Source of the DNA: an uncultured Planctomycetia bacterium
GTDB lineage: Bacteria; Omnitrophota; Gorgyraeia; Taenaricolales; CAZCCH01
Assembly: GCA_964497315.1 (NCBI GenBank)
Contig: CAZCCH010000004.1
Coordinates: 18,307 to 82,306, forward strand
Direction of reading: 5' to 3'
Length of the DNA: 64,000 nucleotides
Positions 1,362-49,214 of the stretch are shown here, piece by piece. The number at the start of each line of letters is the position of its first letter. Within the stretch, counting starts at the first letter, position 1. The position numbers were made by a program, and so were the translations under genes. A model generated the notes under the pieces. That model was not told where the DNA came from. It saw only the letters and a list, made by a program, of their open reading frames with translations, and searched no databases.

Positions 1362-3376
<2,015 letters not shown>

Positions 3377-3402
3377 TTTTAATTCACTTCGCTAGTTAAA
3401 AT

Positions 3403-13983: not shown

Positions 13984-14062
13984 TTCTCACAACTCCTTTT
14001 TTATGGTATTTTATCCTTCAACTTCTATTTCTAAAAAAGACAGCATGTCACAAGTGTGTTTT

Positions 14063-17285: not shown

Positions 17286-17300
17286 ATCGTCAATCCTGTT

Positions 17301-20228: not shown

Positions 20229-21668
20229 TCAATTAAGCGTAGCCTTTCTGGAATTCAATTTATTAACTATGGACCTTAAATTCTTTCGATAATAAAAGTT
20301 ACACATTGATATGGGGTGATGTTGTATATGATATTTTTTAAAATTTCCCTTATTTAAAGGTCCAACGATCTCTTTTTGGATTTCGTGGGTTAATTCAATA
20401 AACCTATCTGAAGAAATCTTGGTAAAGTTTTGTGTACAATCCGTACAATCATTCCATTCGATTTTATAACCTCTATTCAAGAGTTCTTTATAGGCACATG
20501 TTCCAGGCAAAGGCCAAAACTGGTTGAAATGAGCAAAATACGGCCTTATAGATTTAATAAAATTTGCAGACAGCATAAAATCTTCTTCTGTTTGGTCAAC
20601 ATAACCCTTGATCATATTTGCCCTAAAATTTAAACCTACGTCATGGGCCGCCTTTGCTGCTTCGCAATACCTTTCTACATTAATGTTCTTATTCATCCTA
20701 TTTAGTTCTTGTTGTGAACCTGATTCAAAACCGCATTCAACTAATACACAACCCGCGCTTTTCATTAATTTCAAAATTTTTGCTTTTGCCGCAACAGCTG
20801 TAAGCTGACAAATCCATTTGATCTTTTTATGCAAACCTTTTTTCTTAATCATTTCGCATATAGTCTCTGTTCTTTCCACATTGCTCAAAAACATATCGTC
20901 AGCAAAATAAATATAATCAACTTTGTAAGAGCAGATAATTTTTTCCATCTCTTCTAAGACATAATGTGGAGAATGATATCGCACCTTTCCTGGGAACATT
21001 AATGGGCCTGCACAATAATGGCACCTCCTAACACAACCGCGAGAAGAAAATATTGTTGTATGCTTACCTAGGAGATGTCGTTCTTCAACAGGTTTCAAAT
21101 AAAAGTTCATATTCAATAAACTTCTATCTGGAATAGGAATCTTATCTAAATTTTGTATCATTTCCCTTTTGCCAACAGTGTAGAAATCTTCACCCTTCCT
21201 GCTCCATACTCCAGGCATATCAAAAGAGGGAAGGTTATTGACTATATCTAACATGGTCATCTCTCCTTCCCCATCAACTACTAAGTCTATGTCTGGACAG
21301 CACATCAATGTCTCTTTTGGCTCAGCAGTAGGATGTGGTCCTCCTACAATATTAATAACATTAGGGTGAACTCGTTTAATCTTTTTAGAAAAATGTATAA
21401 CATCATACATAAGAGGTGTAGTAGCACTAAAACCGACAAGTTGAGGCTTAAATGATTTTATTCTTTCTAAAAGCTCTTGGTCTGTTGCGGCCAAGTCGTA
21501 ATTGTTCTTAATCAATAATTCATTCCTATCAGCTATCTTTACCTTATGTCCGTTATTTTGCAAGACTGTGGCAATATAAACTAATCCAAGTGGTGGAAAT
21601 GGGTGGTAACCATGAGAGAATTTATCTATTTTTTGAAGGACCAAAGGGTAAATAAAGAAAACGTTCAT
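20229..21668 (-). CDS. B12-binding-domain radical SAM enzyme (class B).
   Basis: The product is 479 aa. An N-terminal cobalamin-binding Rossmann region (PLGLVYIATVLQNNGHKVKIAD) is followed by the CxxxCxxC cluster motif SRGCVRRCHYC. Confidence 0.8.
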   Translation of the reverse strand: MNVFFIYPLVLQKIDKFSHGYHPFPPLGLVYIATVLQNNGHKVKIADRNELLIKNNYDLAATDQELLERIKSFKPQLVGFSATTPLMYDVIHFSKKIKRVHPNVINIVGGPHPTAEPKETLMCCPDIDLVVDGEGEMTMLDIVNNLPSFDMPGVWSRKGEDFYTVGKREMIQNLDKIPIPDRSLLNMNFYLKPVEERHLLGKHTTIFSSRGCVRRCHYCAGPLMFPGKVRYHSPHYVLEEMEKIICSYKVDYIYFADDMFLSNVERTETICEMIKKKGLHKKIKWICQLTAVAAKAKILKLMKSAGCVLVECGFESGSQQELNRMNKNINVERYCEAAKAAHDVGLNFRANMIKGYVDQTEEDFMLSANFIKSIRPYFAHFNQFWPLPGTCAYKELLNRGYKIEWNDCTDCTQNFTKISSDRFIELTHEIQKEIVGPLNKGNFKKYHIQHHPISMCNFYYRKNLRSIVNKLNSRKATLN

Positions 21669-21687: not shown

Positions 21688-22794
21688 TTAGACTATAACC
21701 TCAGCTTTATGAATAAGCTTAAGTTTTTTAAAAATCTCTGCAGAATTTTTATCGTTTGTTATTATTGAATCATACTTTTTTCGCTTTTTTAGCACTCTCC
21801 AAATACACCTTAAAATGAAAAAATTATCAGGTAAAATGAATACCTTAATTCTAAAATGATCGCATAGTTTAATTTCTTTCGCTATATTCTTTTTAAAATA
21901 GACAAAAACACTTGAGGCCTTGTTGGCTTCCTGTCTTGTCTGCTTTTTAAGATTTTGCAAATATGAAGTATCTCTAGATGAAACTATATACACTAGGCGT
22001 TTCGGCTTATCCCATTTTTTATAAAACACTTCTGCATTTTTTGTGAAGATTCTTTTCGCATCGGTTGAGTCTGACCAAGAAGCACCTCCTATGTGCCATA
22101 CGTATGCCCTTTCTGCCATAACGCATCTATAGCCAATGGCCTGAATTCTCCTGCAAAAATCTACTTCTTCAAAATACCCCATGCCAAAGGTTTCATCAAG
22201 ATATCCAATTCTTTCTATTAGCTGACGCTTTATCAGCATGCAAAAGCCTTCACCGCTGTGAATCTCAATCGAGCGGCTATAAGAAGATTTTATTCTTTTT
22301 GCATATTCATCAATTGTTTCATTTGTTCTGGGATTTTTGCTAAAGGTATTACTAGCAGGTGTAACTACGCCTATTGACTCATCGCTTTCTGCGACAGCGA
22401 TTATTTCGCTTAACCAACCATCTGTGACTAATATATCATTATTTAAAAGACAAACATAATCGGCACTAGATTGCTTCATTCCTATATTCATACCTTTAGG
22501 ATATCCCTCATTGGCTTTATTAAATAAAACCGTAATACTTATCAAGTCATTGCCCTTTAGGTTTCTTAAATACCCCATAAAGTCTTCATTCTTGCTGCCA
22601 TTGTCAACAATTATAAGCCTGGTGGGTACGTGCGTATGTTTCAATATGCTCTCAATGCAAGGCTTGGTAAGCTTTAAGTATTCCCATGTTAAAAGAATTA
22701 AATCACAGCTTTTCGTCATTTTTACAAATTTCCCAATATTTTGCCCATCTTGAAAAATCAACCCAGGAAAAAAGAACTGCAAAAATAAACCCAT
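21688..22794 (-). CDS. GT2 glycosyltransferase, paralogue of the N-terminal module of 29308..31422.
   Basis: The segment CDLILLTWEYLKLTKPCIESILKHT..RLIIVDNGS has a DxD-type core. Its C-terminal FFILRCIWRVLKKRKKYD segment is colinear with the 29308 protein. The real start is probably the internal Met near 22719, because the upstream part overlaps the preceding gene. Confidence 0.7.
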   Translation of the reverse strand: MGLFLQFFFPGLIFQDGQNIGKFVKMTKSCDLILLTWEYLKLTKPCIESILKHTHVPTRLIIVDNGSKNEDFMGYLRNLKGNDLISITVLFNKANEGYPKGMNIGMKQSSADYVCLLNNDILVTDGWLSEIIAVAESDESIGVVTPASNTFSKNPRTNETIDEYAKRIKSSYSRSIEIHSGEGFCMLIKRQLIERIGYLDETFGMGYFEEVDFCRRIQAIGYRCVMAERAYVWHIGGASWSDSTDAKRIFTKNAEVFYKKWDKPKRLVYIVSSRDTSYLQNLKKQTRQEANKASSVFVYFKKNIAKEIKLCDHFRIKVFILPDNFFILRCIWRVLKKRKKYDSIITNDKNSAEIFKKLKLIHKAEVIV

Positions 22795-24280
22795 GCATAC
22801 CTTCTAGAAAACCTTTCTTTTTGATGTATAGCTTACGAAATATTTTTAAAGGTCTAAAAATTAATTTTTTACGCAACTTTTTATCTAGCATGCTTCCTTT
22901 TTGTTCATACATCTCAATGGCTTCATAGGTGGTATAACGATTGTGCCTGGCTATAAAGGTTTCTATATCCTTAAAAGGGTAATGCTCTATTTCTTCTTCT
23001 AGGGTTCCTATTTTGCCATTTACAATAAGTTCATGGTGCACTCTCCCTTTATATCTGGCAAATCCCTTTTTGAAAAAATGCAAAGAATAATGATACCACC
23101 CTCCGTATTTCATTGGACGTCCTAAAAAGAAATTTTTGCGTCTAAATTTATAGGCTACGAACTCCGTAGGACAGCTTAAAACTTCCATAACCTTCTTTTT
23201 AAAGGCCTCTGTGACTATTTCATCTGCGTCTAGCTGCACTATCCAATCTCCACTAGAGTTATCAATGCCTATATTTCTTTCCAGTCCAAAATCGCCCTCA
23301 AATTCATGCTGGATAACCTTGGCACCATATTCATTGCAGATATCAACTGTCTTATCAGTACTCATGCCGTCAACTACTACAATTTCATCTACCCATTTAA
23401 TAGACTCAAGGCAATTTCTGATTTTTTCTTCTTCATTTTTGACTATTAAAACTGCTGTAATTGCCTGCCTTTCATTATTCTGCATAGTGCTTCCTGCTTG
23501 TGTTTTTTGAACCATGGGTTGATTTTTATCTAATAGCATTTCCCACAATTTAGCAAAGGTTAAGATTTGATAAAATCCTGCAAACACAGCAAGGATAAAT
23601 CCCCAAGAACCATCCTTGTAACCTTTTTTTCCAACAAGACTGCGCCAGAATCTATCAATGGTCCTGCGTAGAGATCTACTAAAACCCATTTTTTTTTCTG
23701 CCCTGGCTTGCTTCTGCGCTTCTCTTGTTGTTTGATTATTGAGTTTGATTAAAAAATCTTCAATATCCCTGTAAGAGCAATGAATTATATCACTTTTTAA
23801 ATTGCCACATTCGCCTCCCATAAAGGCCCTCGGATGGACTTCTACCTCTTCATATCTGAATTCACTTTTTTTAAACAACTTAAGTTGTGCACTGGGGTAC
23901 CATCCGCCATATCTAACCCAATAATTACCAATGTAGTTTCTTCGCGCGATGTTATATCCATTCGCCGTTGGTGCAGTCTTTAATAAAGCTTCTATTTCAT
24001 CCATGAGTTCTGGCGTAGCCCGTTCATCAGCATCAAGGCTCAAAATCCATTCATTGTCTGCTAGTGAGTATGCGTAGTTTCTATGCTTGCCTTCTATGTC
24101 CATCTTGCGCTGATATACCTTAGCGCCAAGACTGCGGGCAATCTCTACTGTATCATCCTGGCTAAAATCATCCAGGACTACTACTTCATTCGCCCTTTTG
24201 ACAGATTCCAAGCATTCTTTAATTCTGTCTTTCTCATTCTTCGTGATTATTACAATTGATATTGGAATGTTTTCTTTCAT
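22703..24280 (-). CDS. Tandem double-GT2 glycosyltransferase (two GT-A domains in one polypeptide).
   Basis: The product is 525 aa. Two repeats of the GT2 opening are present: ISIVIITKNEKDRIKECLESV..DDFSQDDT and ITAVLIVKNEEEKIRNCLESI..VDGMSTDKT. Each is followed by LDADE or DADE catalytic motifs. Confidence 0.8.
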   Translation of the reverse strand: MKENIPISIVIITKNEKDRIKECLESVKRANEVVVLDDFSQDDTVEIARSLGAKVYQRKMDIEGKHRNYAYSLADNEWILSLDADERATPELMDEIEALLKTAPTANGYNIARRNYIGNYWVRYGGWYPSAQLKLFKKSEFRYEEVEVHPRAFMGGECGNLKSDIIHCSYRDIEDFLIKLNNQTTREAQKQARAEKKMGFSRSLRRTIDRFWRSLVGKKGYKDGSWGFILAVFAGFYQILTFAKLWEMLLDKNQPMVQKTQAGSTMQNNERQAITAVLIVKNEEEKIRNCLESIKWVDEIVVVDGMSTDKTVDICNEYGAKVIQHEFEGDFGLERNIGIDNSSGDWIVQLDADEIVTEAFKKKVMEVLSCPTEFVAYKFRRKNFFLGRPMKYGGWYHYSLHFFKKGFARYKGRVHHELIVNGKIGTLEEEIEHYPFKDIETFIARHNRYTTYEAIEMYEQKGSMLDKKLRKKLIFRPLKIFRKLYIKKKGFLEGMHGFIFAVLFSWVDFSRWAKYWEICKNDEKL

Positions 24281-25779
24281 TTCCTTCTATATATAATTAC
24301 CTTGTGAGGCCAATTCGCTACAGTCTTAAATTTATGATATCCTGGATCAGGCCGGTTCTCGAATCTTATATCAGGAACCGGCAGGTGTATTTTTTCATAT
24401 AAAGACTCTATTCTTTTCTGGTACCTACTACCAATAAATTCCTGAGGTTGCCAATCCCTGCGATAGACTATCCATTCCGGATAGGTTTCAGCCATAAAGG
24501 GTCCATTATCGACCTTCAAGTCAGTGTAGAATATCGCAGCGAAATCTCCATAATTCATTTTAACTGTATCGGCAGGATCAGCCTCTTTCTTTAAATATTC
24601 CACTATACCTTCGGCTGGACCATCATAGTCGTGATTTACCTCCCAGAGGTAATCATATAAATGCAACTTTGTTTGTTTTGCAAATGGTGCTCCGGTATGA
24701 AATATATTTGTAAAACCCACAAGTATAAACAAGCTAAATGCTAAGAGGCTCGATTGCTTTTGCCATCCGGCTAAGACAAGTGCCATTAACATAAAACATA
24801 ACGGTACTAAGTGGATTATATATCGCAACTGCCTTTCATCCGCTAATAATAGAAAAAAGATAGTAGAAATGATAACTATGATGGGTAACCATAAAGACGA
24901 TTTATCCAAAGGATCCTCTAAAACCGGAAACCGCCTCCTAATCCGAAAATACACTAAAGAAATAAATACAAATAGCAACGGGAATATATACTTGTTCAAA
25001 ACTCTGACATAGAATTCCAGGTGATCCTCTGTGCGCTCCAAAGAAAACTGCCCGCTATATTCGAAGCTACCTAAGTAAAGCAAGGAAGGTGCAGTCAATA
25101 TAAACACTGCAAACAATATAATTGATATTATTCTTAGCTTAAGTACATTTCTATGGAATAAAATATAATGAACGAAAATCGCACTCAAAACAGGAAAAAA
25201 TATCCCATAATTGCTATGAAATAAACACGCAGCAGAAATTATAAATCCGAAAGCAGGGGCAATTTTTCTATTCCGCAATAAGTCCAAATAGGATAAAACT
25301 AGCCATAGTGTAAAAAATATAGTCAGGGCATACCAGCGACACTGCCGTACATACAAAAGGAAGGGAACGAAAAATACCATTAAAGCAACACTAACGCGGG
25401 ATACAAATCTGTTTTTAAAAAGTCTATTAGCTAAAAGAAAACACATAGGCACACAACCAAGACCAAACAGCACAAAAACTAATCTGGCGGTAAATGTAGA
25501 TTCCCCGAATAACCAAAAGATACCTGCTACAAGATAGAATTGAAGCCAAGCAGCGTATTTCCAACCTTTATTTACACATGGATCTTCATATATATTCCTA
25601 ACTAAATTTTTACCATCATATGCCTGTGGAATTCCGAACTTGAGAGTATTTCTAGCCAAAACCGCCGTCTCTGCCTCATCCTGCCAAAGATATACATTGC
25701 CTAAATTGGTAAATAAAAGTACTCCTGCCAATAGACAAAGTAAAACCAATATTAAGTCTCTTCTGCCATGCTCCATCAT
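24277..25779 (-). CDS. ArnT/PMT-like GT-C glycosyltransferase (polyprenyl-phosphate-sugar dependent; GT83/GT39-like).
   Basis: The product is 500 aa and polytopic. The first periplasmic loop reads LWQDEAETAVLARN (compared with ArnT LWQPDETRYAEISREM), followed by the WLFGESTF segment. Confidence 0.7.
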   Translation of the reverse strand: MMEHGRRDLILVLLCLLAGVLLFTNLGNVYLWQDEAETAVLARNTLKFGIPQAYDGKNLVRNIYEDPCVNKGWKYAAWLQFYLVAGIFWLFGESTFTARLVFVLFGLGCVPMCFLLANRLFKNRFVSRVSVALMVFFVPFLLYVRQCRWYALTIFFTLWLVLSYLDLLRNRKIAPAFGFIISAACLFHSNYGIFFPVLSAIFVHYILFHRNVLKLRIISIILFAVFILTAPSLLYLGSFEYSGQFSLERTEDHLEFYVRVLNKYIFPLLFVFISLVYFRIRRRFPVLEDPLDKSSLWLPIIVIISTIFFLLLADERQLRYIIHLVPLCFMLMALVLAGWQKQSSLLAFSLFILVGFTNIFHTGAPFAKQTKLHLYDYLWEVNHDYDGPAEGIVEYLKKEADPADTVKMNYGDFAAIFYTDLKVDNGPFMAETYPEWIVYRRDWQPQEFIGSRYQKRIESLYEKIHLPVPDIRFENRPDPGYHKFKTVANWPHKVIIYRRK

Positions 25780-26468
25780 GATGTAAACCTCAAGATTATC
25801 AATTCTACAATCGTAATTATTACATTCAGCGGTAAATCTCCCTTTGCGATTCCCGCTTTCCTAGGAAGATAATCCACCTCTACTTCTTTAAAGTTACAGC
25901 CATTGCGTTTTGCCTTAAATATGACCTCAGCATCCACGCATATACCTCTTGATGTAATTTCCATATTTTTAAATACATCTTTTTTGAAAAGTTTTACCCA
26001 GTTTACATCTTTTAAAGTAATACCAAATAGAAAAAACATTGCCAACCTAAAAACTTTGGTTTTTATCCTTCGAAGTAAAGGATCTGTGTGTCTATATTTA
26101 CGACAGCCCACAATGACATCAAAATCTTTCCATTCTATAAATTTATCTAAATCATCTATGTTGAATTGTCCATCCGAAGGCACAAGTGTTAAATAATCGT
26201 ACCTTGCTGACAATATGCCTGATTTCTGCGCCCCGCCATAACCTATATTAAAAGGATGGTGAATTACTTTAATCATTGCATGTTCGCTAGACAGCCTTTC
26301 TGCAATTTTACGAGTTGCGTCTTTACTGCCATCATTGACTATAAGTATTTCATATTCTTTTGCTAGGGAAGGTAGCTTATTTCTAACTGCTTCAACTACA
26401 ACTTCTAATAACTCTTGTTCATTAAAGGCTGGTATAACTACTGTTAAATTCGGAAGTAGCTCTTTCAT
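25776..26468 (-). CDS. GT2 polyprenyl-phosphate glycosyltransferase, DPM1/GtrB-like, soluble catalytic domain.
   Basis: The product is 230 aa. It has LTVVIPAFNEQE...EILIVNDGSKDAT and DGQ motifs. The C-terminal TM hairpin is absent. Confidence 0.7.
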   Translation of the reverse strand: MKELLPNLTVVIPAFNEQELLEVVVEAVRNKLPSLAKEYEILIVNDGSKDATRKIAERLSSEHAMIKVIHHPFNIGYGGAQKSGILSARYDYLTLVPSDGQFNIDDLDKFIEWKDFDVIVGCRKYRHTDPLLRRIKTKVFRLAMFFLFGITLKDVNWVKLFKKDVFKNMEITSRGICVDAEVIFKAKRNGCNFKEVEVDYLPRKAGIAKGDLPLNVIITIVELIILRFTS

Positions 26469-26470
26469 AT

Positions 26471-27877
26471 CTAAATAAAATCCTCTCGCGTTTTATCTTT
26501 AGAACAAACTAAATGGCTAATTAAATAAAAACCTCCCCGCATGGATTCCAAAGGGTATCTAATGAAAAATTTGGCCCTGGAAGCTATATACTTTGGCCTG
26601 AGATAGTATTCTTTTAAAAACCTACCCTCCCATGCAGTTAATTTCTTCTCAAATTCAACATCTTTTAAACGGTTTTTGTATGGAAAAAGCGAAAAATCTA
26701 TTTTCTCTTTCATGTCATTGAAAAAGGCTGTACCAGGATATGGAACAGTTTTAAAAATGGTACAGTAGTCTAGTTTGCACTTCTTTGCCAACTTTAGTGT
26801 CTCATTGAAATCTTCTTCTGTTTCAATAGGAGCTCCAACCATAAAAAACCCTGCTACTTCTATTTTGGCCTTATTAACAAGATTTATTTTCTCAGGTATC
26901 TCTTCCACCTTGTATGACTTTTTGTAATAATCTAAAATTTTCTGCGAACCGCTTTCTATTCCTATGTACAACCGCTTACAACCTGCCTTTTTCATTGCCC
27001 CAAGCATATTCCCATCAAGGGTATTAATTCTACTTAAAGCTGCCCAATTGACCTTTAGGCCTTTTTCTAATATCAAGTCACATATCTTTATAACGCGTTC
27101 TTTTTTGACCGTGAAGGTATCATCTAGAAATCTAATGTTTCTTATTTTAAAGCGCTGGACGATTTCCTCTATTTCTGCAACTACACTTTCTGCTGAACGA
27201 AATGCAAGTCTATTTCCGTATGTCCGTACACAATACGTACAAGCATAGGGGCAACCCCTCGAAGTAAGGATTGTAGTAAATGGTTTGCCTAAAAAAAGAT
27301 CATTGTAAAGTCTATTGTCTATGAGGCTACGCTCAGGATGGGGTAATGAGTCTAAATCCTTTATTCTGCCTCTGGGTTCATTAATGGTTACATTGCCGTT
27401 ACGCTTAAATGCAATACCGTTTATATTGCCTATGTCCTCATTTTTAATTAGGCTATCGCAAAAAACTGAGAATGTCTCCTCGGGTTCATCCATTATTATA
27501 ATATCTACCTTAGATTTATTGAGTATTTCTTCAGGAAATAGGGTTGGATAATAACCTATTGCTATAAACTTTGTAGTTACAAGTTTGCCTTTTAAAAAAT
27601 CCAAAACTTCTATATCTTCACCAAATATCTCAAAGCCTGGCATAAATACTAAAAGGTCTGGCTTTGCTTCTTTTAGCCTTTCAGAAACCGCCTCAGCATT
27701 CATTCCCTGGGCGATTGCATCGATTATCTCTGTTTCTACACCCTCCTTTTTATGCGCTACTGCAGCTAAATACATCAACTCTATTGGAGGAAACAAAAAA
27801 TTTGGTGCATTATAAGAACACATGTATCTACGAATAACTTTATTTCTATTTGGTAGGTTTAAAAATGTTATTTTCAT
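26471..27877 (-). CDS. B12-binding-domain radical SAM enzyme.
   Basis: The product is 468 aa. It has an N-terminal B12-like domain and the cluster motif SRGCPYACTYC. Confidence 0.8.
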   Translation of the reverse strand: MKITFLNLPNRNKVIRRYMCSYNAPNFLFPPIELMYLAAVAHKKEGVETEIIDAIAQGMNAEAVSERLKEAKPDLLVFMPGFEIFGEDIEVLDFLKGKLVTTKFIAIGYYPTLFPEEILNKSKVDIIIMDEPEETFSVFCDSLIKNEDIGNINGIAFKRNGNVTINEPRGRIKDLDSLPHPERSLIDNRLYNDLFLGKPFTTILTSRGCPYACTYCVRTYGNRLAFRSAESVVAEIEEIVQRFKIRNIRFLDDTFTVKKERVIKICDLILEKGLKVNWAALSRINTLDGNMLGAMKKAGCKRLYIGIESGSQKILDYYKKSYKVEEIPEKINLVNKAKIEVAGFFMVGAPIETEEDFNETLKLAKKCKLDYCTIFKTVPYPGTAFFNDMKEKIDFSLFPYKNRLKDVEFEKKLTAWEGRFLKEYYLRPKYIASRAKFFIRYPLESMRGGFYLISHLVCSKDKTREDFI

Positions 27878-27889
27878 AGTGCAATCTTT

Positions 27890-29311
27890 TTAGATGCCCC
27901 CTGCTATGGCTAGAAAACCATCGAAGTAACGTTTGATATCATTCAAACTTCTAATTTGTTTAATCTGTTGAAAAATATATTTTGGCCTGAGATAAAACCT
28001 TTTATGTATAACAGAAGATATTGAGCGTAATTGTTCTTCAGTCATCCCTTTGGGTATATAAGCAATATCTGCCGAATCCGGGATGTTCAACTGGCAAAAT
28101 TGACTCCATTTTCTATGAAGAAGCGTCCCTTCTTTTGATGCAATATCAAACAATTCATTTCCAGGGTATAGCGTCACATTATAAAAATTGGCTATATCTA
28201 TAGGTAAGGATTTAGCAAATTCCAAGCTGCGGTTTATGGAATCGAGGGTATCTCCTGGCATGCCAATAACAAAAAATGCCCTCACGTTAAGCCCTGCCTT
28301 TTTTGCCTGCTTAACTGCTCTGGAGCTATCCTCTATGGTCATGCCCTTCTTCATGCTAGCTAAGATAGCTGGATCTCCTGATTCTAGGCCGAATCCTATC
28401 TGCCAGCACCCTGCTTGTTTCATAAGTCTTAAAAGTTCTTCATTCACACAGCGCACATGTGAGAGACAAGACCAGATAATATCTAATTTCTTTTTTATTA
28501 TCTGTTGGCATATAGCCATAGCTCTTTCTTTATTAACTGTGAAAGTATCATCGAAGAATTTTATCTCTTTAACACCATATTTAAACTTAAGCTCTTCTAT
28601 TTCCTCTAATACGTTTTGTACTGAACGAGCTCTAAACTTATTGCCAAATACCTTCCTATCGCAAAATGTACATCCAAAGGGACACCCCCTACTGGTCATC
28701 ATATGTGCAAAAGGCAACTTTCTATATGAAGCAGCAACAGGTTTGTAATACTTTAAGTCAGGATAGAGATGGCGTGCCGGAGGTGGTAATTTATCCAAAT
28801 TGTCTATATAACCAGCTCTTTGTGTTATTTTTATACGACCATTTTCTTTATACGCTACACCTTCTATCTTTTCTAGTTGCAGGGAATTTTCTTGTATTTG
28901 TTTTGCTAATTCCAAAAATGCATACTCGCCTTCTCCTATAATACCTATATCAAAATTAGAATTCTGCATTGCTTCTTCTGGAATAGCGGTCATGTGGGGT
29001 CCTCCTAATACCAGAAAAACCCCTGACAATGCATCTTTTATCTTTTTTGCAACTGAACAGGCATTCGGATAAGAAAGTGTTGTGGCGGTTATTCCAATAA
29101 TTTGCGGGTTAGCCTCCTTAAGCATACCAACTAACTCCTCTTCTTGTGTATTTAAAGGACGACTGTCGATTATGCTAATATCAAAACCTTCTCTTTCTAA
29201 AACTGCAGCTATATAACCCAGCCCCAAAGATGGTAAAACATTGGCTATCCTCTTAAATTTTCCAGCATATTCTGGCCTAGATAAAGGGGGGTCTATTAAG
29301 CAAATCTTCAT
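27890..29311 (-). CDS. B12-binding-domain radical SAM enzyme.
   Basis: The product is 473 aa. An N-terminal B12-like domain (LGLGYIAAVLEREGFDISIID) is followed by SRGCPFGCTFC. Confidence 0.8.
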   Translation of the reverse strand: MKICLIDPPLSRPEYAGKFKRIANVLPSLGLGYIAAVLEREGFDISIIDSRPLNTQEEELVGMLKEANPQIIGITATTLSYPNACSVAKKIKDALSGVFLVLGGPHMTAIPEEAMQNSNFDIGIIGEGEYAFLELAKQIQENSLQLEKIEGVAYKENGRIKITQRAGYIDNLDKLPPPARHLYPDLKYYKPVAASYRKLPFAHMMTSRGCPFGCTFCDRKVFGNKFRARSVQNVLEEIEELKFKYGVKEIKFFDDTFTVNKERAMAICQQIIKKKLDIIWSCLSHVRCVNEELLRLMKQAGCWQIGFGLESGDPAILASMKKGMTIEDSSRAVKQAKKAGLNVRAFFVIGMPGDTLDSINRSLEFAKSLPIDIANFYNVTLYPGNELFDIASKEGTLLHRKWSQFCQLNIPDSADIAYIPKGMTEEQLRSISSVIHKRFYLRPKYIFQQIKQIRSLNDIKRYFDGFLAIAGGI

Positions 29312-31422
29312 AATTCAACCCTTGTTAATTCCATATTGGCGCAATGGTTAACTACCTCGGCAGGTGTGGTAACCCAAGCTTTCGTATCTTTAGTAACAAT
29401 TTCCAAAAAACTTCTATATATATCAAAAATCTTTCCTTTCATGCCAAAGTGAGAATCTGGATGTATATTTAAAGTAGCCAAGCCACCCATTTCCTTTATC
29501 CAGCTTAATTTATTAAGCCATAATTTCAAAATTTCCTCTGGTGTCTTTTTCAAAAAAACACAAGTAGAGTCTTGTGGCAAGGTTAATGGTAATTCCATAA
29601 GTTTACCCAAACGATATGGAAAAATGCTGCAGCAACCGCTTCTATAAGGAGGCCTTGCAGAAATTTCAGTATCTGGGAATGTAGAATCGTATTCAAAAAA
29701 TTCTGAAATTGCACGCAATAAAGTCGGCGTCCTCAACAATGAAGGTGATCTAAAACCCTTCATGTTGTATTCCTTTATTGTATTTCGATATTTCTCTAAC
29801 CTAGAACATATCTCTGATTGCGAAAGATAAGGTAAACTTTCATCGTGGTTATCGCCATGACAGGCTACTTCATTTTCTCCTTTAAGTACTTCATGGAAAA
29901 ACCGCCCACCAAACTCTACATTCTTCAATACAACAAACCAGCAGGATTTAACACCAAATTCTGCTTCAAGGTGTAGGAATTTTTCTGCTGGCTTAAAACC
30001 TTTGTTTGTATCTATGTCATGCGTTAAACATACAGCATATTTTTTTTCTTCGGGCCATTTAATCTGACTAAGTTTACCTCTTATAGTCCTTTTTAGTAAA
30101 TCAACTGTTATGTCTTCAGGCCAATTTGGAAAGTTTACACGTTGTCTTTTTAAACTATGTAAACCTGTCAGCCACTGGGCAATCAAAACCCTTATTGAAC
30201 CAGGTACTAAATGATAGTGAAAAGGTAAGTATGAAGTCCAGGGTCTTTTGGATTTTAGGTATCTTTCTGCTAAGATGCAATCTATGGTATCATTTATGTC
30301 CAAATCAAGATTTAGTCTTTCTTTAAAGTTAACATATTTGGCAGGGATTCTCCGTAACGCCTCAAGCACCCCTTTGGTTATGCTCAAAGTTACCCTTGCC
30401 TTATTCAAGAATCTTACTTTATTAAACTGCTCTGCCAGTTTTACATCTGGACAAAAAATGATATCATAACGTTTTTTCTTTACACTGCTTCGCCATAGAC
30501 AGCGTAGATTAAAAAATTGTGCAGGAAAATCCATGGTACGTAAATCACTATGAGAAATATTATTAGATAAACCATTTCTAACTTGTGATTTGCTTGTAAA
30601 ATCTACAAAATTACCTTGCCTGGCTATTTCAAGGCATTTAAGATGAAAATCTCTTAAAAAATCTAAATCTGTGTTTGAAGTAACTGCCATAATTCTTAAT
30701 GGCCTGCCCCATTTTTGATAAAACCTTTGTCTACTCTCGTCAAATTTCTTCTGGCGGTCACTTAATTTTTGAACAGATTTGTGTTCATAATGATGAACGT
30801 AAGCACCCTTTGCAATTACACAAATAAACCCAATCTCTTTGGCCCTATAAGAATAATCTGTATCTTCAAAAAAGAACCCACTTAAAAAATCATCTAGATA
30901 TCCTATTTTTTCTATTAACTGGCGTTTAACCAACATGCAAAAACCTATCGTACTGCCGATTTCGCGAAATCCACCACCTTCTAACTTGAGTAGTTCTTTA
31001 GATAAAGTATCTACTGTCTCAGATCCCTTAAGGCAAATACCAAAGTTATTGCTATTTGGATTAACTATGCCTATGTCTTCCCTTAGGTTTGCAACCCGAA
31101 TCATTTCAGAAAGCCACCCCTTAGTTACTAAGGTATCATTATTGAGAATACAGGAAAAAGGTGCGCTTGAGGCCTTCAGTCCTACATTATTTCCACCTAC
31201 AAACCCGAGGTTTTCTTTATTCGTAATCAATTTAATTTCAACATGTTCTGTGGACTTAAGGTTTTGTAGGTATAGCTTAGTTAAATTATCGCTATTATTA
31301 TCTACAATAAGAAGGCGTGAGGGGCATGTGGTTTTTTTTAAGACGCTTTCAATGCAAGGCTTTGTATATTCAAGGTTATTCCAAACCAAAACTATAATAT
31401 CGCAAATAGGAGTTTTCTTCAT
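29308..31422 (-). CDS. Bifunctional GT2 glycosyltransferase (N) plus ArnD/NodB-like polysaccharide deacetylase/deformylase domain (C).
   Basis: The product is 704 aa. The N-terminal ~360 aa are colinear with the 21688 GT2. The C-terminus carries the CE4/ArnD-type motifs CLTHDIDTNKG (compared with ArnD RIDVDT) and VACHGDNHD. Confidence 0.65.
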   Translation of the reverse strand: MKKTPICDIIVLVWNNLEYTKPCIESVLKKTTCPSRLLIVDNNSDNLTKLYLQNLKSTEHVEIKLITNKENLGFVGGNNVGLKASSAPFSCILNNDTLVTKGWLSEMIRVANLREDIGIVNPNSNNFGICLKGSETVDTLSKELLKLEGGGFREIGSTIGFCMLVKRQLIEKIGYLDDFLSGFFFEDTDYSYRAKEIGFICVIAKGAYVHHYEHKSVQKLSDRQKKFDESRQRFYQKWGRPLRIMAVTSNTDLDFLRDFHLKCLEIARQGNFVDFTSKSQVRNGLSNNISHSDLRTMDFPAQFFNLRCLWRSSVKKKRYDIIFCPDVKLAEQFNKVRFLNKARVTLSITKGVLEALRRIPAKYVNFKERLNLDLDINDTIDCILAERYLKSKRPWTSYLPFHYHLVPGSIRVLIAQWLTGLHSLKRQRVNFPNWPEDITVDLLKRTIRGKLSQIKWPEEKKYAVCLTHDIDTNKGFKPAEKFLHLEAEFGVKSCWFVVLKNVEFGGRFFHEVLKGENEVACHGDNHDESLPYLSQSEICSRLEKYRNTIKEYNMKGFRSPSLLRTPTLLRAISEFFEYDSTFPDTEISARPPYRSGCCSIFPYRLGKLMELPLTLPQDSTCVFLKKTPEEILKLWLNKLSWIKEMGGLATLNIHPDSHFGMKGKIFDIYRSFLEIVTKDTKAWVTTPAEVVNHCANMELTRVEL

Positions 31423-31447: not shown

Positions 31448-33271
31448 TTAAATATCTCTAAACTGCATATCATACAACTTCTTATACAATCCATCTGTTT
31501 CCATAAGGTCGTCGTGTTTTCCAATGGCTTCTATTTTACCTTTTTCCAACACAATAATCTTATCTGCATTACGCACAGTAGATAACCTATGGGCTATAAC
31601 AAAAACGGTTCTGTTCTTCATTAATTTATTAAGGGCTTCTTGAACTAATTGTTCCGATTCAGTATCTAACTGAGAGGTAGCTTCATCCAAAATTAGTACA
31701 GGCGGGTTTTTCAACAATGCCCGTGCGATTGACAACCTTTGCCTTTCTCCTCCTGAAATAGTATGCCCCCTATCTCCTATAAACGTATCGTAGCCCTCTG
31801 GGAATTTTGTTATAAAATTATGCGCATTAGCAGCTCTGGCTGCGTTTATAACGTCTTTCTCCGATGCATCTTCTCTGCCATAGGAAATATTGGCAAAGAT
31901 TGTATCATTAAACAATATTGTTTCCTGAGTAACTAAACCTATTTGTGCACGTAGTGAATCTAAGCTAGCAACTCTTATATCCTGGTTATCTACTAATATT
32001 CTTCCTGATGTAGGATCGTAAAAGCGAGGGATTAAATTTACAAAGGTGCTCTTGCCTGCACCGCTTGGTCCTACGATAGCGATGATTTCACCTTTTTTAA
32101 CTTCGATAGATATAGAGTCTAAGGTCGGTTTTGTATCATAGCTAAAATTAACGTTATCAAAAACTATTTTTTCATGTAATGGTTTTAGCTTAACTGCACG
32201 CTTTGCCTCTATCACTGTGGGCTTTTCATCTAGGATATGATATACCCTCTCACTCGCTGAAATTGCCTGTTGGTTTATCATATGAACTTTACTGAGACGT
32301 TTTATTGGTCTTATTAATGAAAGCAAGGCTGCCAAAAAGGCGATAAATGCTCCTGGGCTTAAGCCTTCATATATAACCTGTTTTCCACCAAGCCACAAAA
32401 CTACTGCTACAGCTAACATGCTCAAAAATTCCGTAATAGGCCTTACGGAATTCATCCTTTTAACGGATTTCATCGAAAGTCTGTAAAATTTCTGGTTTTC
32501 TTTGCGGAATTTTTCAGATTCAGATTTCTCCATAGTAAAGGCTTTGACAACCTGCATACCAGATATAGCCTCAAGCAAAAGGGAATTTATATCTGCTGTC
32601 TTTACCTGGCTTTGCGTAGTAATTCTTTTTAGGCGGCTGCCTATTTTTATAATTGGATAAGCCATTAAAGGGAGCAGGGCAGCTATAATAAATACAAAAC
32701 TCCAGGAAATTGAGAAGTAATTTCTAATCACAAGAAGCATTGTTAAATACACTAAAAATTGCACTGGCTGATAAAATATTTCAGTTAAACCCTCAGCAAT
32801 TGCCTGCTGTATCAAAGCGGTATCATTGGTTATCCTACTCATTAGAGTAGCAGTTTTATTACGATGATAAAAATTCATGGATAACCCCAGTAATTTGTTG
32901 TAAATTCTATTTTGAACATCCCTCACTGACCTTTTGCTGGCAGCTACCATCAAATAAGAATGAGCAAATACAAGGACTTCCTTAAGCACAACCATGCCCA
33001 TAACAATTAATATGATATAGTTTAATAGAGTACCTCGTGGCAGGGTATTGATTTTATTCACTAACCCCTTGACTATTTCTGGTATGGCATTAGAATTTGG
33101 TAAGATAATTTCTTTACCGGCAAGTATCTTATCTACCAATGGAATTATCATGCCCACAGAAACACCATCAAACAGCGATGACAAAATCATACATACCACC
33201 GCAAATGCCAGAATTTTGGTGTGGGGACCTATGAATTTTAACATGCGAAAATAATTTTTGATATTAATCAT
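31448..33271 (-). CDS. ABC transporter, fused permease/ATPase, MsbA-like lipid/glycolipid exporter.
   Basis: The product is 607 aa. Six predicted TM helices are followed by a Walker A GPSGAGKST, the ABC signature LSGGERQRLSIARAL and a Walker B ILDEATS. Confidence 0.85.
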   Translation of the reverse strand: MINIKNYFRMLKFIGPHTKILAFAVVCMILSSLFDGVSVGMIIPLVDKILAGKEIILPNSNAIPEIVKGLVNKINTLPRGTLLNYIILIVMGMVVLKEVLVFAHSYLMVAASKRSVRDVQNRIYNKLLGLSMNFYHRNKTATLMSRITNDTALIQQAIAEGLTEIFYQPVQFLVYLTMLLVIRNYFSISWSFVFIIAALLPLMAYPIIKIGSRLKRITTQSQVKTADINSLLLEAISGMQVVKAFTMEKSESEKFRKENQKFYRLSMKSVKRMNSVRPITEFLSMLAVAVVLWLGGKQVIYEGLSPGAFIAFLAALLSLIRPIKRLSKVHMINQQAISASERVYHILDEKPTVIEAKRAVKLKPLHEKIVFDNVNFSYDTKPTLDSISIEVKKGEIIAIVGPSGAGKSTFVNLIPRFYDPTSGRILVDNQDIRVASLDSLRAQIGLVTQETILFNDTIFANISYGREDASEKDVINAARAANAHNFITKFPEGYDTFIGDRGHTISGGERQRLSIARALLKNPPVLILDEATSQLDTESEQLVQEALNKLMKNRTVFVIAHRLSTVRNADKIIVLEKGKIEAIGKHDDLMETDGLYKKLYDMQFRDI

Positions 33272-33298: not shown

Positions 33299-34180
33299 TT
33301 ACAATTGCAATTCTTTAAATTTAGTTCCAAAATTTCCACGAATTAGCTGGAACATTTCCTCAACGCGGTTGCGATATGTGTGGCTCTTAATAGCTTGTTC
33401 GTATCCATTTTTGGCAATTACCTCCCTTTTTTCTTCATGCGCTAAATAATAATCTATAAGTTTAAAAAGTTGCCGTCTGTTTTTATACATCACAAGATGC
33501 ATGTCATTTTGAAATCCTAATTCTTCTATGCGGCAATCTTCTATCCAATTGTTCAAAAGTAACGTTTGGCAACAAAGTATTTCAAAAAATCTCATATTAC
33601 ATCCAACCTTTTTCCCTCTGTGTCTTATTGCATAATTAAAACCTATTTTTGCAGATGAATAAATTTCATCCAACTGCTTGAAATCTGCCTTACCTATGAA
33701 ACTGTTAGGATATCTTTTTTTTAGGCGTCTTAACAATTTTGGCCTGTAGCCCTTGCCCTCTGTTCCAACAAAAGCTAGGTCATATTTCTTATCAGCTGCT
33801 CTGGGTTTGTGAACTGAGGGGTCACAGGCAAATGGTATCCAATAGGCATTAATTCCTAGTCTTTGCATCTGTTGTGCGCTTTGTTTGAGCGCACAAAATA
33901 CCAAGTCATAGTTAACCGCTTGTCTGACTATCTTTCTTGAGGGATGTTTTAAGTGTGTATCCAACGCCCAGAAAACCTTTGGTTTTAAATTAAGGGGTAA
34001 ATCATGTTGATAATCACCATGGTCTATCCTGCAATACAAATCATACTCTGGCTGAATATTACCAACATCACTGGTGTTAAAATGATCTACCTTAAGATGT
34101 GGGCTATCCTTTAGGATCCTTTCTATATAAAAACCCGTAGTTCCTTCTCTGTCTTTGTTAAAAACCAATGCTATTTTCAC
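33299..34180 (-). CDS. CgeB-like putative glycosyltransferase (DUF3880 / Glyco_trans_1_2-type C-domain).
   Basis: The product is 293 aa. It has YDLAFVGTEGKGYRPKLL and a C-terminal E..REVIAKNGYEQAIKSHTYRNRVEEM region typical of CgeB-family proteins. Confidence 0.45.
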   Translation of the reverse strand: MKIALVFNKDREGTTGFYIERILKDSPHLKVDHFNTSDVGNIQPEYDLYCRIDHGDYQHDLPLNLKPKVFWALDTHLKHPSRKIVRQAVNYDLVFCALKQSAQQMQRLGINAYWIPFACDPSVHKPRAADKKYDLAFVGTEGKGYRPKLLRRLKKRYPNSFIGKADFKQLDEIYSSAKIGFNYAIRHRGKKVGCNMRFFEILCCQTLLLNNWIEDCRIEELGFQNDMHLVMYKNRRQLFKLIDYYLAHEEKREVIAKNGYEQAIKSHTYRNRVEEMFQLIRGNFGTKFKELQL

Positions 34181-34183
34181 GAT

Positions 34184-35293
34184 TTAAGAACCAACTATGT
34201 CTGTAAGTTGAGAGATAACATATTCAATCTCAATTTTTGTTAGACCAGGATATATGGGAAGTGAGATAACCTCTCTGCATAGTTTTTCTGCAACTGGGAA
34301 TTTCCCTTTCTTATATCCTGAATCCCTGTATGCGCCTTGGAGATGCAAAGGTATTGGATAATGTACCAATACCTTGATCCCTCTTTTAGAAAGTTCTTTG
34401 ATAACGTGATTACGCCTAGGCACTCTCACTACATACTGATGATATACATGTTTTGCATATGGTGCTTCTAGTGGGGTAATCACATTAGCCTTTGATCTTG
34501 TGAATAATTTATTGTAAATTTTTGCATTTAATCTTCTTTTGTTATTCCATTCGTCCAATTCATTCAACTTTATATTCAATATAGCTGCTTGAATAGAATC
34601 AAGGCGCGAATTGTAGCCTTTTATCATATGTTCATATTTTGACTTTCTGCCATAATCCCTTAAAAGCAACAATTTTTTATATATCTTGCTGTTATTGGTA
34701 ACTGCTACTCCGGCATCTCCATATGCACCTAGGTTTTTGCCTGGGTAAAGACTGAAAGCACCTATATCCGAAAAGCGCCCTACCTTTTTACCTTTATATT
34801 TTGCACCATGGGCTTGAGAAGCATCTTCGATTATCTTCAGGCCATGCCTTCTAGCTATTTTTCTGACAGAATCCATATCGCACGGTTGGCCGTATAGATG
34901 GACTGGTATAATTGCCTTTGTCTTTTTTGTGATAGCCTTTTCTATTTTATCTACATCTATGTTGTATGTTATTGGATCAGCATCTACTAGCACTGGCCTG
35001 GCACCGGTAAAGGAAATAGCCAATGCAGTAGCTATATAAGTATTCGCTGTAGTAATTACTTCATCGTTTGCGCCTATGCCTAATGCTAGAAGCGACAAAA
35101 ACAAAGACTCTGTACCGTTTGCCACTCCTACTGCATATCTAACACCGCAATATTTGGCAAATCGCTCCTCAAATATCTTAACATCAGGACCAAGTATAAA
35201 GGAACCCTTAGCTATTGCCTTCTTTACAGAAGATTCTATCTGTTTAGAAACTTTTGCGTCCTGTTTTTTTAAATCCATAAAAGCTACCTTCAC
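34184..35293 (-). CDS. DegT/DnrJ/EryC1/ArnB-family PLP-dependent nucleotide-sugar aminotransferase.
   Basis: The product is 369 aa. It has FILGPDVKIFEERFAKYCGVRYAVGVANGTESL and the PLP lysine region DASQAHGAKYKGK. Confidence 0.85.
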   Translation of the reverse strand: MKVAFMDLKKQDAKVSKQIESSVKKAIAKGSFILGPDVKIFEERFAKYCGVRYAVGVANGTESLFLSLLALGIGANDEVITTANTYIATALAISFTGARPVLVDADPITYNIDVDKIEKAITKKTKAIIPVHLYGQPCDMDSVRKIARRHGLKIIEDASQAHGAKYKGKKVGRFSDIGAFSLYPGKNLGAYGDAGVAVTNNSKIYKKLLLLRDYGRKSKYEHMIKGYNSRLDSIQAAILNIKLNELDEWNNKRRLNAKIYNKLFTRSKANVITPLEAPYAKHVYHQYVVRVPRRNHVIKELSKRGIKVLVHYPIPLHLQGAYRDSGYKKGKFPVAEKLCREVISLPIYPGLTKIEIEYVISQLTDIVGS

Positions 35294-45014: not shown

Positions 45015-45018
45015 TCGG

Positions 45019-48442: not shown

Positions 48443-48443
48443 G

Positions 48444-49211: not shown

Positions 49212-49214
49212 CTT

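Follow-up and report, generated by a model that had tools for sequence, protein, structure and literature searches.

A GT2 glycosyltransferase joined in frame to a CE4-type deacetylase in a surface-glycan gene cluster of an uncultured Omnitrophota bacterium

Introduction

When a glycosyltransferase and a deacetylase are found in one open reading frame (ORF), one has to ask whether the joined gene is real, where its halves came from, and whether the two activities serve the same part of glycan assembly. The question is raised by a minus-strand gene at 29308..31422 of a 64,000-nucleotide (nt) stretch of contig CAZCCH010000004.1 (assembly GCA_964497315.1, positions 18,307 to 82,306), from an uncultured bacterium that GTDB places in the Omnitrophota. 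We call this whole stretch the window and give all coordinates within it; 50 kb of the window is a cluster of genes for cell-surface sugars.

The gene is a single ORF of 704 residues that joins a family 2 glycosyltransferase (GT2) catalytic domain, a tail domain, a linker, a helical subdomain and a barrel of the carbohydrate esterase family 4 (CE4), or NodB, fold. Two other ORFs of the window enter the comparison: a stand-alone GT2 with the same tail (21688..22794, 368 residues) and a VimE-like protein in which a DUF7033 domain precedes a CE4-like domain (57575..59014, 479 residues; hereafter the 57575 protein). All three were confirmed on the minus strand. An initial annotation took the fusion to have been assembled from the other two. 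Here, we find that the gene is a genuine in-frame GT2 and CE4 fusion, as that annotation proposed, and we ask where its halves arose and what the protein may do.

The fusion gene and its junction

Pfam recognizes a GT2 domain at residues 9-173 of the fusion (58.3 bits) and Polysacc_deac_1 at residues 461-569 (19.9 bits, cut-off 23.1). By BLASTP, homology to the class of GT2 enzymes that carry the tail domain (GT2+tail) stops at residue 346, and homology to a free-standing deacetylase from another organism, P0002, starts at residue 360, where it is paired with P0002 residue 51; the match to the deacetylase family profile likewise begins at profile position 44. The intervening linker (residues 347-359, 30346..30384, minus strand) has no homology to either parent family. 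Because the GT2 homology ends at residue 346 and residue 360 already pairs with P0002 residue 51, the junction is best read as clean, with the first ~50 deacetylase residues deleted and not read through. No intergenic remnant was found at the junction, nor was a composition break or any repeat detected there.

Two European Nucleotide Archive (ENA) metagenome contigs from different samples, L002 and L003, encode an identical 704-residue fusion in DNA that is 99.99% identical to the window. The gene is therefore known in three copies, all of them short-read metagenome assemblies of essentially one strain. Both ENA contigs stop exactly at window position 22313, within the stand-alone GT2 gene; a repeat search at that position found none, and the shared end may mark a strain-variable boundary. 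A DNA-level search between the two GT2 genes also found no repeats, and on that ground an assembly chimera formed through repeats was rejected. The stop codon of the fusion and the start codon of the gene that follows share the letters ATGA, so that the fusion and this gene, a B12-binding radical SAM enzyme at 27890..29311, are translationally coupled.

The exact architecture, GT2+tail followed by this deacetylase, was seen in this strain only across homologue, exhaustive hidden Markov model (HMM) and metagenome searches; the metagenome scan for further copies returned relatives of the N-terminal half only.

The glycosyltransferase half

The GT2 catalytic domain has the GT-A fold and covers residues 1-240 (30703..31422, minus strand), with the acidic motifs VDN (D41), NND (residues 94-96) and FEDTD. 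Its PF00535 score of 58.3 bits lies well above the cut-off of 23.3. The conserved tail follows at residues 241-346 (30385..30702, minus strand), a small alpha/beta, Rossmann-like domain with the motif FF.LRC.WR..KK.YD. In a 19-member family alignment, the fusion keeps 23 of the 23 invariant residues, including the nucleotide-binding and metal-binding acidic motifs, and 53 of the 63 highly conserved GT2+tail columns; the ten differences are mostly conservative.

AlphaFold2 (AF2) models were built for each half, as a full-length alignment misplaced GT2 homologues onto the deacetylase half. The N-terminal model (predicted local distance difference test score, pLDDT, 89.8) has a GT-A fold followed by a beta-alpha-beta tail at residues 243-345. 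Searched with Foldseek, it matches the GT-A enzymes K4CP, ppGalNAc-T and WrtF at E values of 1e-10 to 1e-13, that is, only generic GT-A enzymes that give no clue to the tail. A profile of the tail domain had no significant match among Pfam and PDB sequences. The tail is nevertheless conserved across all 19 family members, and the class always carries it as an alpha/beta domain of ~105 residues; it occurs, equally without a Pfam or PDB sequence match, at 21688..22005 in the stand-alone GT2. On the model and the conserved residues, the N-terminal half appears to be an intact GT2 of the chain-extending GT-A class.

Relatives of this half are named Candidatus Omnitrophota in the source databases. 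They occur as single units (~390 residues), as tandem doubles (~740 residues), and as fusions to GT4, Glyco_trans_1_2 or methyltransferase domains. The NCBIfam models for ArnC and PpgS do not match the N-terminal half, and its hydropathy profile contains neither a hydrophobic segment nor a C-terminal membrane anchor. Judged by these features, the fused GT2 is evidently not a polyprenyl-phosphate enzyme of the ArnC/PpgS/DPM1/GtrB type.

The deacetylase half

The C-terminal half begins with a helical subdomain at residues 360-460 (30043..30345, minus strand), marked by LPFHYH and FPNWP motifs, for which AF2 predicts helices. It is the counterpart of DUF7033 in the 57575 protein: hhalign pairs it with residues 90-190 of that protein, where DUF7033 occupies residues 102-192. 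The CE4/NodB-fold barrel follows at residues 461-704 (29311..30042, minus strand) and was assigned from profile searches, AF2 and Foldseek. In the AF2 model of this half (pLDDT 89.8; predicted template modelling score, pTM, 0.91), the helical subdomain is succeeded by a distorted (beta/alpha) barrel of the NodB type. Foldseek gave 66 PDB matches at E<=0.001 and, among the matches listed, nearly all have the CE4/NodB fold; the top match is 3rxz (1.3e-12), and others are HP0310, the PuuE group, ArnD (8t0j, 9e-7) and WbmS. A profile of the family, compared with PDB sequences, finds 3rxz at E 5e-22, the Helicobacter PgdA enzyme HpPgdA at 3e-17 and ~30 classical CE4 enzymes.

The catalytic motifs can be placed by alignment to 3rxz (all on the minus strand). 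Motif 1 is H468-D469-I470-D471 (THDID, 30010..30021), aligned to FDVD of 3rxz and read as the catalytic base and the metal-binding Asp; H468 and D469 are invariant in 47 sequences, and D471 in the eight closest. Motif 2, H522-G-D-N-H526 (29845..29859), aligns to HGYLH and would supply the two metal-binding His residues, which are invariant in the 47 sequences. The motif 3 arginine, R558 in GFRSPS (29749..29751), is likewise invariant and aligns to GYRAP, and the probable catalytic acid, the motif 5 histidine H654 in NIHPD (29461..29463), is at least 90% conserved and aligns to NHP. D618, Y578 and D579 are conserved at 90% or more in the same 47-sequence alignment. By sequence, then, the fusion has the CE4 metal triad (Asp plus His-x3-His), the motif 3 Arg and the motif 5 His, and of the 34 columns conserved at 85% or more among the other family members, 33 are unchanged in it.

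Other members of the family pass the PF01522 threshold that the fusion misses, for example P0170 (39 bits), P0174 (32 bits) and several free-standing members. Since the fusion falls below that threshold and yet CE4 structures are found with the family profile at E 5e-22, we regard this half as part of a divergent branch of the CE4 superfamily. It is an apparently intact CE4 domain and a putative metal-dependent de-N-acetylase.

Relatives within the window and the origin of the halves

The stand-alone GT2 is the only close paralogue of the N-terminal half in the window. Its start is most likely the ATG at 22719 (M26), not 22794, as the family alignment begins there; with this start, the gene overlaps the one upstream of it by 17 nt. 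Residues 1-346 of the fusion align with its residues 24-368 (142/347 identities, 41%, 3 gaps, E 3e-84 by BLASTP), and the tail motif is aligned as QFFNLRCLWRSSVKKKRYD in the fusion and NFFILRCIWRVLKKRKKYD in the stand-alone GT2. The colinearity reported in the initial annotation, tail included, is thus borne out. The stand-alone GT2 is the best BLAST match of this half (259 bits), followed closely by P0009 from another organism (257 bits, 39% identity), and in a neighbour-joining (NJ) tree the two window proteins are sisters with a bootstrap of 55%. They are weakly supported sisters and may be old paralogues. A recent segmental duplication of a GT2 and radical SAM gene pair was considered and rejected, the radical SAM proteins being 34% and the GT2s 41% identical.

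The kinship of the C-terminal half with the 57575 protein is of another order. BLASTP aligns only residues 577-692 with 346-464 (29% over 125 residues, E 3e-6), and a tblastn search of the whole window with this half returned the same stretch (E 1.4e-4) and no other. A profile built from 47 family members matches the 57575 protein with a probability of 99.4% (E 3.3e-21) over 308 colinear columns; hhalign pairs fusion residues 360-699 with residues 90-471, and the motifs that had been quoted for the pair stand in register (CLTHDIDT with CLIHDVDQ, CHGDNH with LHGSYE). At ~23-29% identity, a colinear match of 308 columns indicates a similarity that is real, full-length and not due to low-complexity sequence, yet remote. 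The claimed colinearity holds at this profile level; as a close relationship it does not. The fusion thus escapes both objections that the initial annotation had set against itself, a C-terminal domain devoid of the metal-binding Asp/His residues and a likeness restricted to low-complexity segments.

The 57575 protein itself scores 145 bits on the NCBIfam VimE model (NF053580, cut-off 440) and carries Pfam DUF7033. In its motif 2, HGSYE, the second metal-binding His of CE4 enzymes is replaced by Glu. The fusion had no match to the VimE model at E<=0.1.

A word-indexed search found 48 homologues of the C-terminal half, all free-standing and ~270-530 residues long. The closest, P0002, is 57% identical and others are ~40% identical; the Glyco_trans_1_2 gene upstream of P0002 is 42% identical to the one at window 33299..34180. 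Since free-standing homologues elsewhere are so much closer than the 57575 protein (57% or ~40% as against 23-29%), the C-terminal half was not derived from it. Its family is large, uncharacterised, free-standing in other organisms and a distant sister group to VimE.

The deacetylase family in other genomes

With the family profile, an exhaustive HMM search yielded 942 representatives (clusters at 50% identity) at E<=1e-30. Gene context was examined at L004/L005, L006/L007, L008, L009, L010 and L011; a locus search with a smaller alignment had given four true deacetylase-family loci among 36. In L004/L005, a triad of MocA, LbH and DegT genes is followed by sulfatase, epimerase and second DegT genes; an ArnC-like GT2 then precedes the deacetylase, beyond which come a B12 radical SAM gene, a methyltransferase, EamA and two PMT_2 genes. 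L006/L007 has MocA, LbH, DegT and a PpgS-like GT2 whose gene overlaps the deacetylase start by 4 nt, with a PMT_2/DUF6541 gene farther on, and L010, from a planctomycete (Planctomycetota), has the same series of MocA, LbH, DegT, PpgS-like GT2 (49% identical to window 25776..26468) and deacetylase. At L008, DegT and an epimerase precede a PpgS-like GT2 and the deacetylase, which two methyltransferases follow. The archaeal locus L009 has DegT, an epimerase, a divergent GT2 beside the deacetylase, and then a B12 radical SAM gene; in L011 (Elusimicrobiales), one unassigned gene separates an ArnC-like GT2 from the deacetylase, and a B12 radical SAM gene lies beyond two further genes.

Three features recur. 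Immediately upstream of the deacetylase, and on its strand, L004, L006, L008 and L010 carry a PpgS/ArnC-like GT2, which is nearby in L011 and is the adjacent, divergent GT2 in L009; a B12 radical SAM gene directly follows the deacetylase in L004 and L009, as one follows the fusion in the window, and is nearby in L011; and the MocA/LbH/DegT triad lies upstream in L004, L006 and L010, its proteins 39-59% identical to those of the window. The GT2 beside the deacetylase in these loci is always of the polyprenyl-phosphate type and never of the GT2+tail type. The family is set in a conserved neighbourhood of the Arn/PpgS type.

Members of the family are also joined to other enzymes, at least 16 of them among the top 150 representatives. 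P0174 (637 residues) joins a PpgS-like GT2, 37% identical to window 25776..26468, to the deacetylase. An NAD-epimerase precedes the deacetylase in P0170, a (B12) radical SAM domain in P0218 and P0227, GT4 in P0228, P0244, P0245, P0258 and P0280, DUF354 in P0275, a methyltransferase in P0285, and an AMP-binding adenylating enzyme in P0286; GT4 follows it in P0233, P0254 and P0299, and an exosortase (EpsH domain) in P0256. Fusions of this CE4 family with pathway partners are therefore common as a class, and their recurrence corroborates the functional links read from gene order. The initial annotation had called such fusions rare, which is true of the exact architecture and not of the class.

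Three details of these proteins deserve mention. P0227 carries a full B12 radical SAM enzyme, and the exosortase of P0256 echoes the association of VimA with exosortase (PMC7468200). At the P0174 locus (L047, 181..5182), an LbH and DegT fusion (547 residues) is followed by the 637-residue GT2 and deacetylase fusion, with a B12 radical SAM gene directly upstream.

The cluster around the fusion

The genes near the fusion, on the minus strand and assigned mostly by Pfam, contain parts of the same module in a different order from that of relatives. Upstream lie a MocA oxidoreductase (WbpB-like, 35913..36989), an LbH acetyltransferase (WbpD-like, 35290..35916), a DegT aminotransferase (WbpE-like, 34184..35293) and the Glyco_trans_1_2 gene at 33299..34180. 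Directly upstream of the fusion is an MsbA/PglK-like ABC exporter (31448..33271; Pfam ABC_membrane and ABC_tran; NCBIfam MsbA 529 bits, PglK 234 bits). The coupled radical SAM gene that directly follows the fusion has Pfam B12-binding and Radical_SAM domains, and a second of the B12 type (26471..27877) is 48% identical to the radical SAM protein of deacetylase locus L006. Next come a 230-residue PpgS/DPM1-like polyprenyl-phosphate GT2 (25776..26468), whose best NCBIfam match is PpgS and which has a C-terminal hydrophobic helix, and a PMT_2/ArnT-like GT-C membrane glycosyltransferase (24277..25779; weak PMT_2 match, 23.8 bits against a cut-off of 26.1; at least nine hydrophobic segments). Compared with the GT2s directly upstream of the free-standing deacetylases (L006, L008, L010) and with the GT2 half of P0174, the PpgS-like GT2 shows 37-49% identity.

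Radical SAM genes lie at 20229..21668, 26471..27877, 27890..29311, 46997..48442 and 62601..63731, an unusual density for a polysaccharide locus. They comprise four B12-binding paralogues with 27-36% mutual identity, whose best NCBIfam matches are HpnJ, BchE and P-methyltransferase-like, and one SPASM protein. The region 46997..50186 resembles a second copy of the module without the deacetylase. Its GT2 (49215..50186) is ArnC-like, scores 219 bits on the ArnC model and has two hydrophobic helices at the C-terminus; with it are a methyltransferase (48444..49211) and a B12 radical SAM gene (46997..48442). Second MocA and AsnB paralogues lie just downstream of it, at 43998..46962.

The 57575 protein belongs to a Wbp/Vim-type module on the minus strand at 54767..60018, together with a FemAB/VimA-like protein upstream of it (59011..60018) and, downstream, a methyltransferase (56625..57473) and an AsnB/WbpS-like amidotransferase (54767..56671). 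Beside the VimA/VimE-like pair, at 60015..62628, are a formyltransferase paralogue (31% identical to the Fmt-like protein at 4453..5394) and a glucuronyl C5-epimerase-like gene (61663..62628), which hint at N-formylated and/or C5-epimerised uronic sugars.

At the downstream end of the cluster (12826..19199), one finds a glycerophosphotransferase-like gene (12826..13983), an ATP sulfurylase (14063..15247), a membrane protein of a phosphodiesterase family (15210..17285) and a membrane-anchored sulfatase/LtaS-like protein (17301..19199); decoration with sulfate or phospho-substituents is possible. Two other multidomain glycosyltransferases are also encoded in the cluster, a 525-residue protein with two GT2 domains at 22703..24280, the second a weak SunS-family match, and a 616-residue GT4 and DUF218 fusion at 51594..53444. 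Outside the glycan cluster, adjoining gap and pgk, are two tandem GalT/HIT-like genes (2378..4434) that are 48% identical to each other.

Proposed function

The highest 19-residue hydropathy of the fusion is 0.93, and it has neither a membrane segment nor a signal peptide, so both domains are cytoplasmic, whether soluble or peripheral. Within the cluster, hydrophobic segments do occur in the GT-C protein and in the two GT2s of PpgS-like and ArnC-like type. A cytoplasmic location for both domains rules out an arrangement like that of PgaB, IcaB or MatB and leaves the logic of ArnC with ArnD or of NodC with NodB. A mechanism of the PgaC/PgaB kind, which the initial annotation had suggested, or of the MatB kind was accordingly rejected on topology.

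We propose that the 704-residue protein would be a bifunctional cytoplasmic enzyme of glycan assembly. The WbpB/WbpE/WbpD-like triad would make an N-acetylated (di)amino sugar nucleotide; a PpgS/ArnC-like GT2 would put the sugar onto polyprenyl phosphate; the deacetylase would expose an amine at the cytoplasmic face; B12 radical SAM enzymes and methyltransferases could then modify the sugar further before an exporter flips the lipid-linked product, which a GT-C enzyme would then transfer. The deacetylase of this strain would have lost its first ~50 residues on being joined behind GT2+tail, so that glycosyl transfer and de-N-acetylation became physically coupled, with the fused GT2 carrying out a transfer that neighbours the de-N-acetylation. 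On balance, we lean towards this reading, in which the CE4 half de-N-acetylates a polyprenyl-phosphate-linked (di)amino sugar at the cytoplasmic face, in a branch that continues with B12 radical SAM chemistry, flipping and GT-C transfer, and the fused GT2 performs the neighbouring transfer. The joined gene, the fold, the intact motifs, the cytoplasmic topology, the conserved neighbourhood and the repeated fusions are shown directly; that the substrate is lipid-linked rather than nucleotide-linked, which of the two reactions comes first and whether an intermediate is channelled are matters of inference.

Several points weigh against it. The fused GT2 is not of the PpgS/ArnC type, and the two activities of the protein may not follow directly upon each other. 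VimE, the closest relative to have a name, is both annotated and proposed to act on a UDP-sugar (PMC7468200), and the fusions with an epimerase and an adenylating enzyme suit nucleotide-sugar as well as lipid-linked chemistry. The fusion is known from one strain, its score stays below the Pfam PF01522 gathering threshold (19.9 against 23.1 bits), and the assignment of D469/D471, H522 and H526 to the metal site follows from alignment.

Alternative explanations

Two alternatives concern the history of the gene. Two neighbouring genes might have been merged by an assembly or sequencing error that erased a stop codon or caused a frameshift, and it is true that all three copies are short-read and 99.99% identical, representing essentially one strain, and that the homologue, HMM and metagenome searches gave no diverged orthologue with the fused architecture. 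Yet the same ORF stands in two independent assemblies from different samples, and the junction is clean: ~50 deacetylase residues are deleted there, with no intergenic remnant, repeat or composition break. An artefact is unlikely, indeed very much so. The gene could also have been put together recently within the cluster by copying and joining the stand-alone GT2 (21688..22794) and the 57575 gene (57575..59014), as the initial annotation had it. Both candidate parents lie in the same 64 kb, the GT2 is the top match of the N-terminal half (259 bits) and groups with it in the NJ tree, and each GT2+tail unit precedes a B12 radical SAM gene. This history is contradicted for the C-terminal half, which is far closer to P0002 and many other proteins than to the 57575 protein, has 942 family representatives of its own, and differs from the VimE-like branch in motif 2 (HGSYE in the latter). 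For the N-terminal half, the window paralogue is scarcely ahead of P0009 (41% and 259 bits against 39% and 257 bits), the sister grouping has a bootstrap of only 55%, the copies lack similarity at the DNA level, and the radical SAM proteins after the two units are just 34% identical. We consider recent assembly from these two genes improbable.

The others concern what the protein does. Chief among them is that the CE4 half acts on a nucleotide sugar, as proposed for VimE, for example UDP-2,3-diacetamido-2,3-dideoxy-hexose or its uronate, so that deacetylation would come first and the edited donor would pass to the fused GT2. VimE, the closest named superfamily member (hhalign 99.4%), is annotated as a UDP-2,3-diacetamido-2,3-dideoxy-glucuronate deacetylase (PMC7468200); the WbpB/E/D-like triad for such UDP-sugars lies just upstream, here and in relatives; the fusions with an NAD-epimerase (P0170) and an adenylating enzyme (P0286) fit soluble substrates; and the fusion lacks a membrane anchor. 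Set against this, the partner that the family most constantly has, both as neighbour and in fusions, is a GT2 of the polyprenyl-phosphate type, and GT-C and EamA genes lie close by, a combination that marks pathways of lipid-linked sugars; the fusion has no match to the VimE model; and VimE is termed a putative deacetylase by its own authors (PMC7468200), a literature search for biochemical proof of its substrate having found none. We judge the nucleotide-sugar route to be the less probable of the two, though it is the alternative to take most seriously. One might finally suppose that one half is a non-catalytic scaffold, for example if GT2+tail only docked the deacetylase to an assembly complex at the membrane, or if the CE4 half served as a binding module like the CE4 pseudoenzyme BA3943. 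The fused GT2 class is promiscuous in its fusions (a second GT2, GT4, a methyltransferase, Glyco_trans_1_2), ten of the 63 conserved GT2+tail columns are altered in the fusion, and CE4 pseudoenzymes occur among the structural matches (6hm9, 7bkf). Every invariant residue of both families is nevertheless kept, including the GT2 acidic motifs and the D/H/H/R/H set of CE4, and the ten differences are mostly conservative; a scaffold role is thus a poor candidate.

Comparison with known systems

The Arn pathway of lipid A modification with 4-amino-arabinose (ArnC and ArnD, with ArnB, ArnE/F and ArnT), in which ArnC loads a sugar onto lipid, ArnD deformylates it and ArnT transfers it (PMC4402001), offers a close parallel: a GT2 step, cytoplasmic removal of an N-acyl group by a CE4-fold enzyme, flipping and GT-C transfer. 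The deacetylase family is flanked by ArnC/PpgS-like GT2, DegT (ArnB-like), EamA and PMT_2 (ArnT-like) genes. ArnD (8t0j) is a structural match of the C-terminal half (E 9e-7, template modelling score 0.64) at 14% identity, and the family profile did not find ArnD among PDB sequences at E<=1. As ArnC-like, DegT and PMT_2 genes are in the cluster but ArnD is matched only in its fold, the resemblance is one of pathway logic. There are clear differences. ArnC and ArnD are separate proteins, whereas here they would be represented by a fused GT2 that has no C-terminal membrane helices and no match to the ArnC model, and by a CE4 half with an extra helical N-terminal subdomain. The likely sugar is an N-acetylated diamino sugar and not 4-deoxy-4-formamido-L-arabinose (Ara4FN), the B12 radical SAM partners lack an Arn counterpart, and no ArnA-type formyltransferase/decarboxylase gene adjoins the fusion. 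Because the fused GT2 is not of the polyprenyl-phosphate type, the description "like ArnC plus ArnD" fits the fusion only loosely: the gene context of the family agrees with it, while the GT2 of the required type is separate, at 25776..26468.

Within the family, P0174 has a similar architecture, with the same order of GT2 then deacetylase and with B12 radical SAM and LbH/DegT neighbours. It differs in having a polyprenyl-phosphate GT2, so that it simply fuses the conserved adjacent gene pair, and in keeping the deacetylase N-terminus; the window fusion has a GT2 of the GT2+tail class and lacks the first ~50 deacetylase residues.

In Nod-factor synthesis (NodC and NodB, with NodA), the cytoplasmic CE4 enzyme NodB de-N-acetylates the product of the GT2 NodC, and the freed amine can then be modified. 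NodC is, however, a membrane-embedded processive synthase of chitin oligomers, and NodB is a minimal classical CE4 enzyme with a TFDD motif and no helical subdomain; the two are not fused.

VimE and VimA of Porphyromonas gingivalis offer a comparison within the superfamily, VimE sharing with the fusion a helical DUF7033-like subdomain, a CE4-like barrel and a THDxD motif. In the logic proposed for the Wbp/Vim linking-sugar pathway, one N-acetyl group is removed from a 2,3-diacetamido sugar and the amine is then modified again (PMC7468200). VimE is free-standing, and the window has its own VimE-like and VimA-like pair at 57575..60018; the C-terminal half is ~23% identical to the VimE-like member of that pair and has no VimE model match. 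The neighbours also differ: an ABC exporter and B12 radical SAM genes adjoin the fusion, the partners of its C-terminal half being GT2 and B12 radical SAM genes, and the gene for a FemAB-type aminoacyl transferase adjoins the 57575 gene instead.

A GT2 and a CE4 domain already coexist in MatB of Streptomyces, a bifunctional synthase and deacetylase of poly-N-acetylglucosamine (PNAG) in which an intracellular PgaC-like GT2, a transmembrane helix and an extracellular CE4 domain acting on exported polymer form one polypeptide (PMC5972031). In contrast to MatB and to the PgaC/PgaB and IcaA/IcaB systems, the fusion has no membrane segment and scores 20.8 bits on PgaC_IcaA against a cut-off of 422. 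In the decoration of mycobacterial arabinogalactan with galactosamine, PpgS makes polyprenyl-phosphate-linked N-acetylgalactosamine (GalNAc); factors as yet unidentified remove the acetyl group, and the GT-C enzyme Rv3779 then makes the transfer (PMC9671496). The sequence of a PpgS-like GT2, deacetylation and GT-C transfer is shared, and PpgS is the NCBIfam model that best matches the window gene at 25776..26468; neither the organisms nor the glycans are related.

Implications

Bifunctional GT2 and CE4 proteins, and the logic of glycosyl transfer followed by deacetylation, are already established, and the fusion overturns nothing. The finding is real and only modestly surprising, and the pattern at the level of the family is the more useful lead. 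Taken further, and speculatively, the 942 clusters of this CE4 family could represent the missing cytoplasmic de-N-acetylase for polyprenyl-phosphate-linked (di)amino sugars in many uncultivated phyla, paired with PpgS-like GT2s and B12 radical SAM enzymes, the fusions marking a channelling assembly line. The relatives named include Omnitrophota, Planctomycetota, Elusimicrobia and archaea. On this tentative extension, the lipid-linked sugar could next be altered by the B12 radical SAM enzymes, for instance through C-methylation, which is so far undescribed for lipid-linked sugar donors.

If both activities are real, the protein would be a compact soluble enzyme that edits a glycan in two steps, adding a sugar and exposing an amine, in a lineage whose envelope chemistry is little charted. 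Beyond this gene, a large branch of CE4 is tied by gene order and repeated fusions to polyprenyl-phosphate GT2s, Wbp-type synthesis of diamino sugars, B12 radical SAM enzymes and GT-C transferases. Candidate de-N-acetylases for Arn-, Lgm- and PpgS-type pathways may thus be drawn from its members, among such pathways being the well-studied mycobacterial decoration with galactosamine (GalN; PMC9671496).

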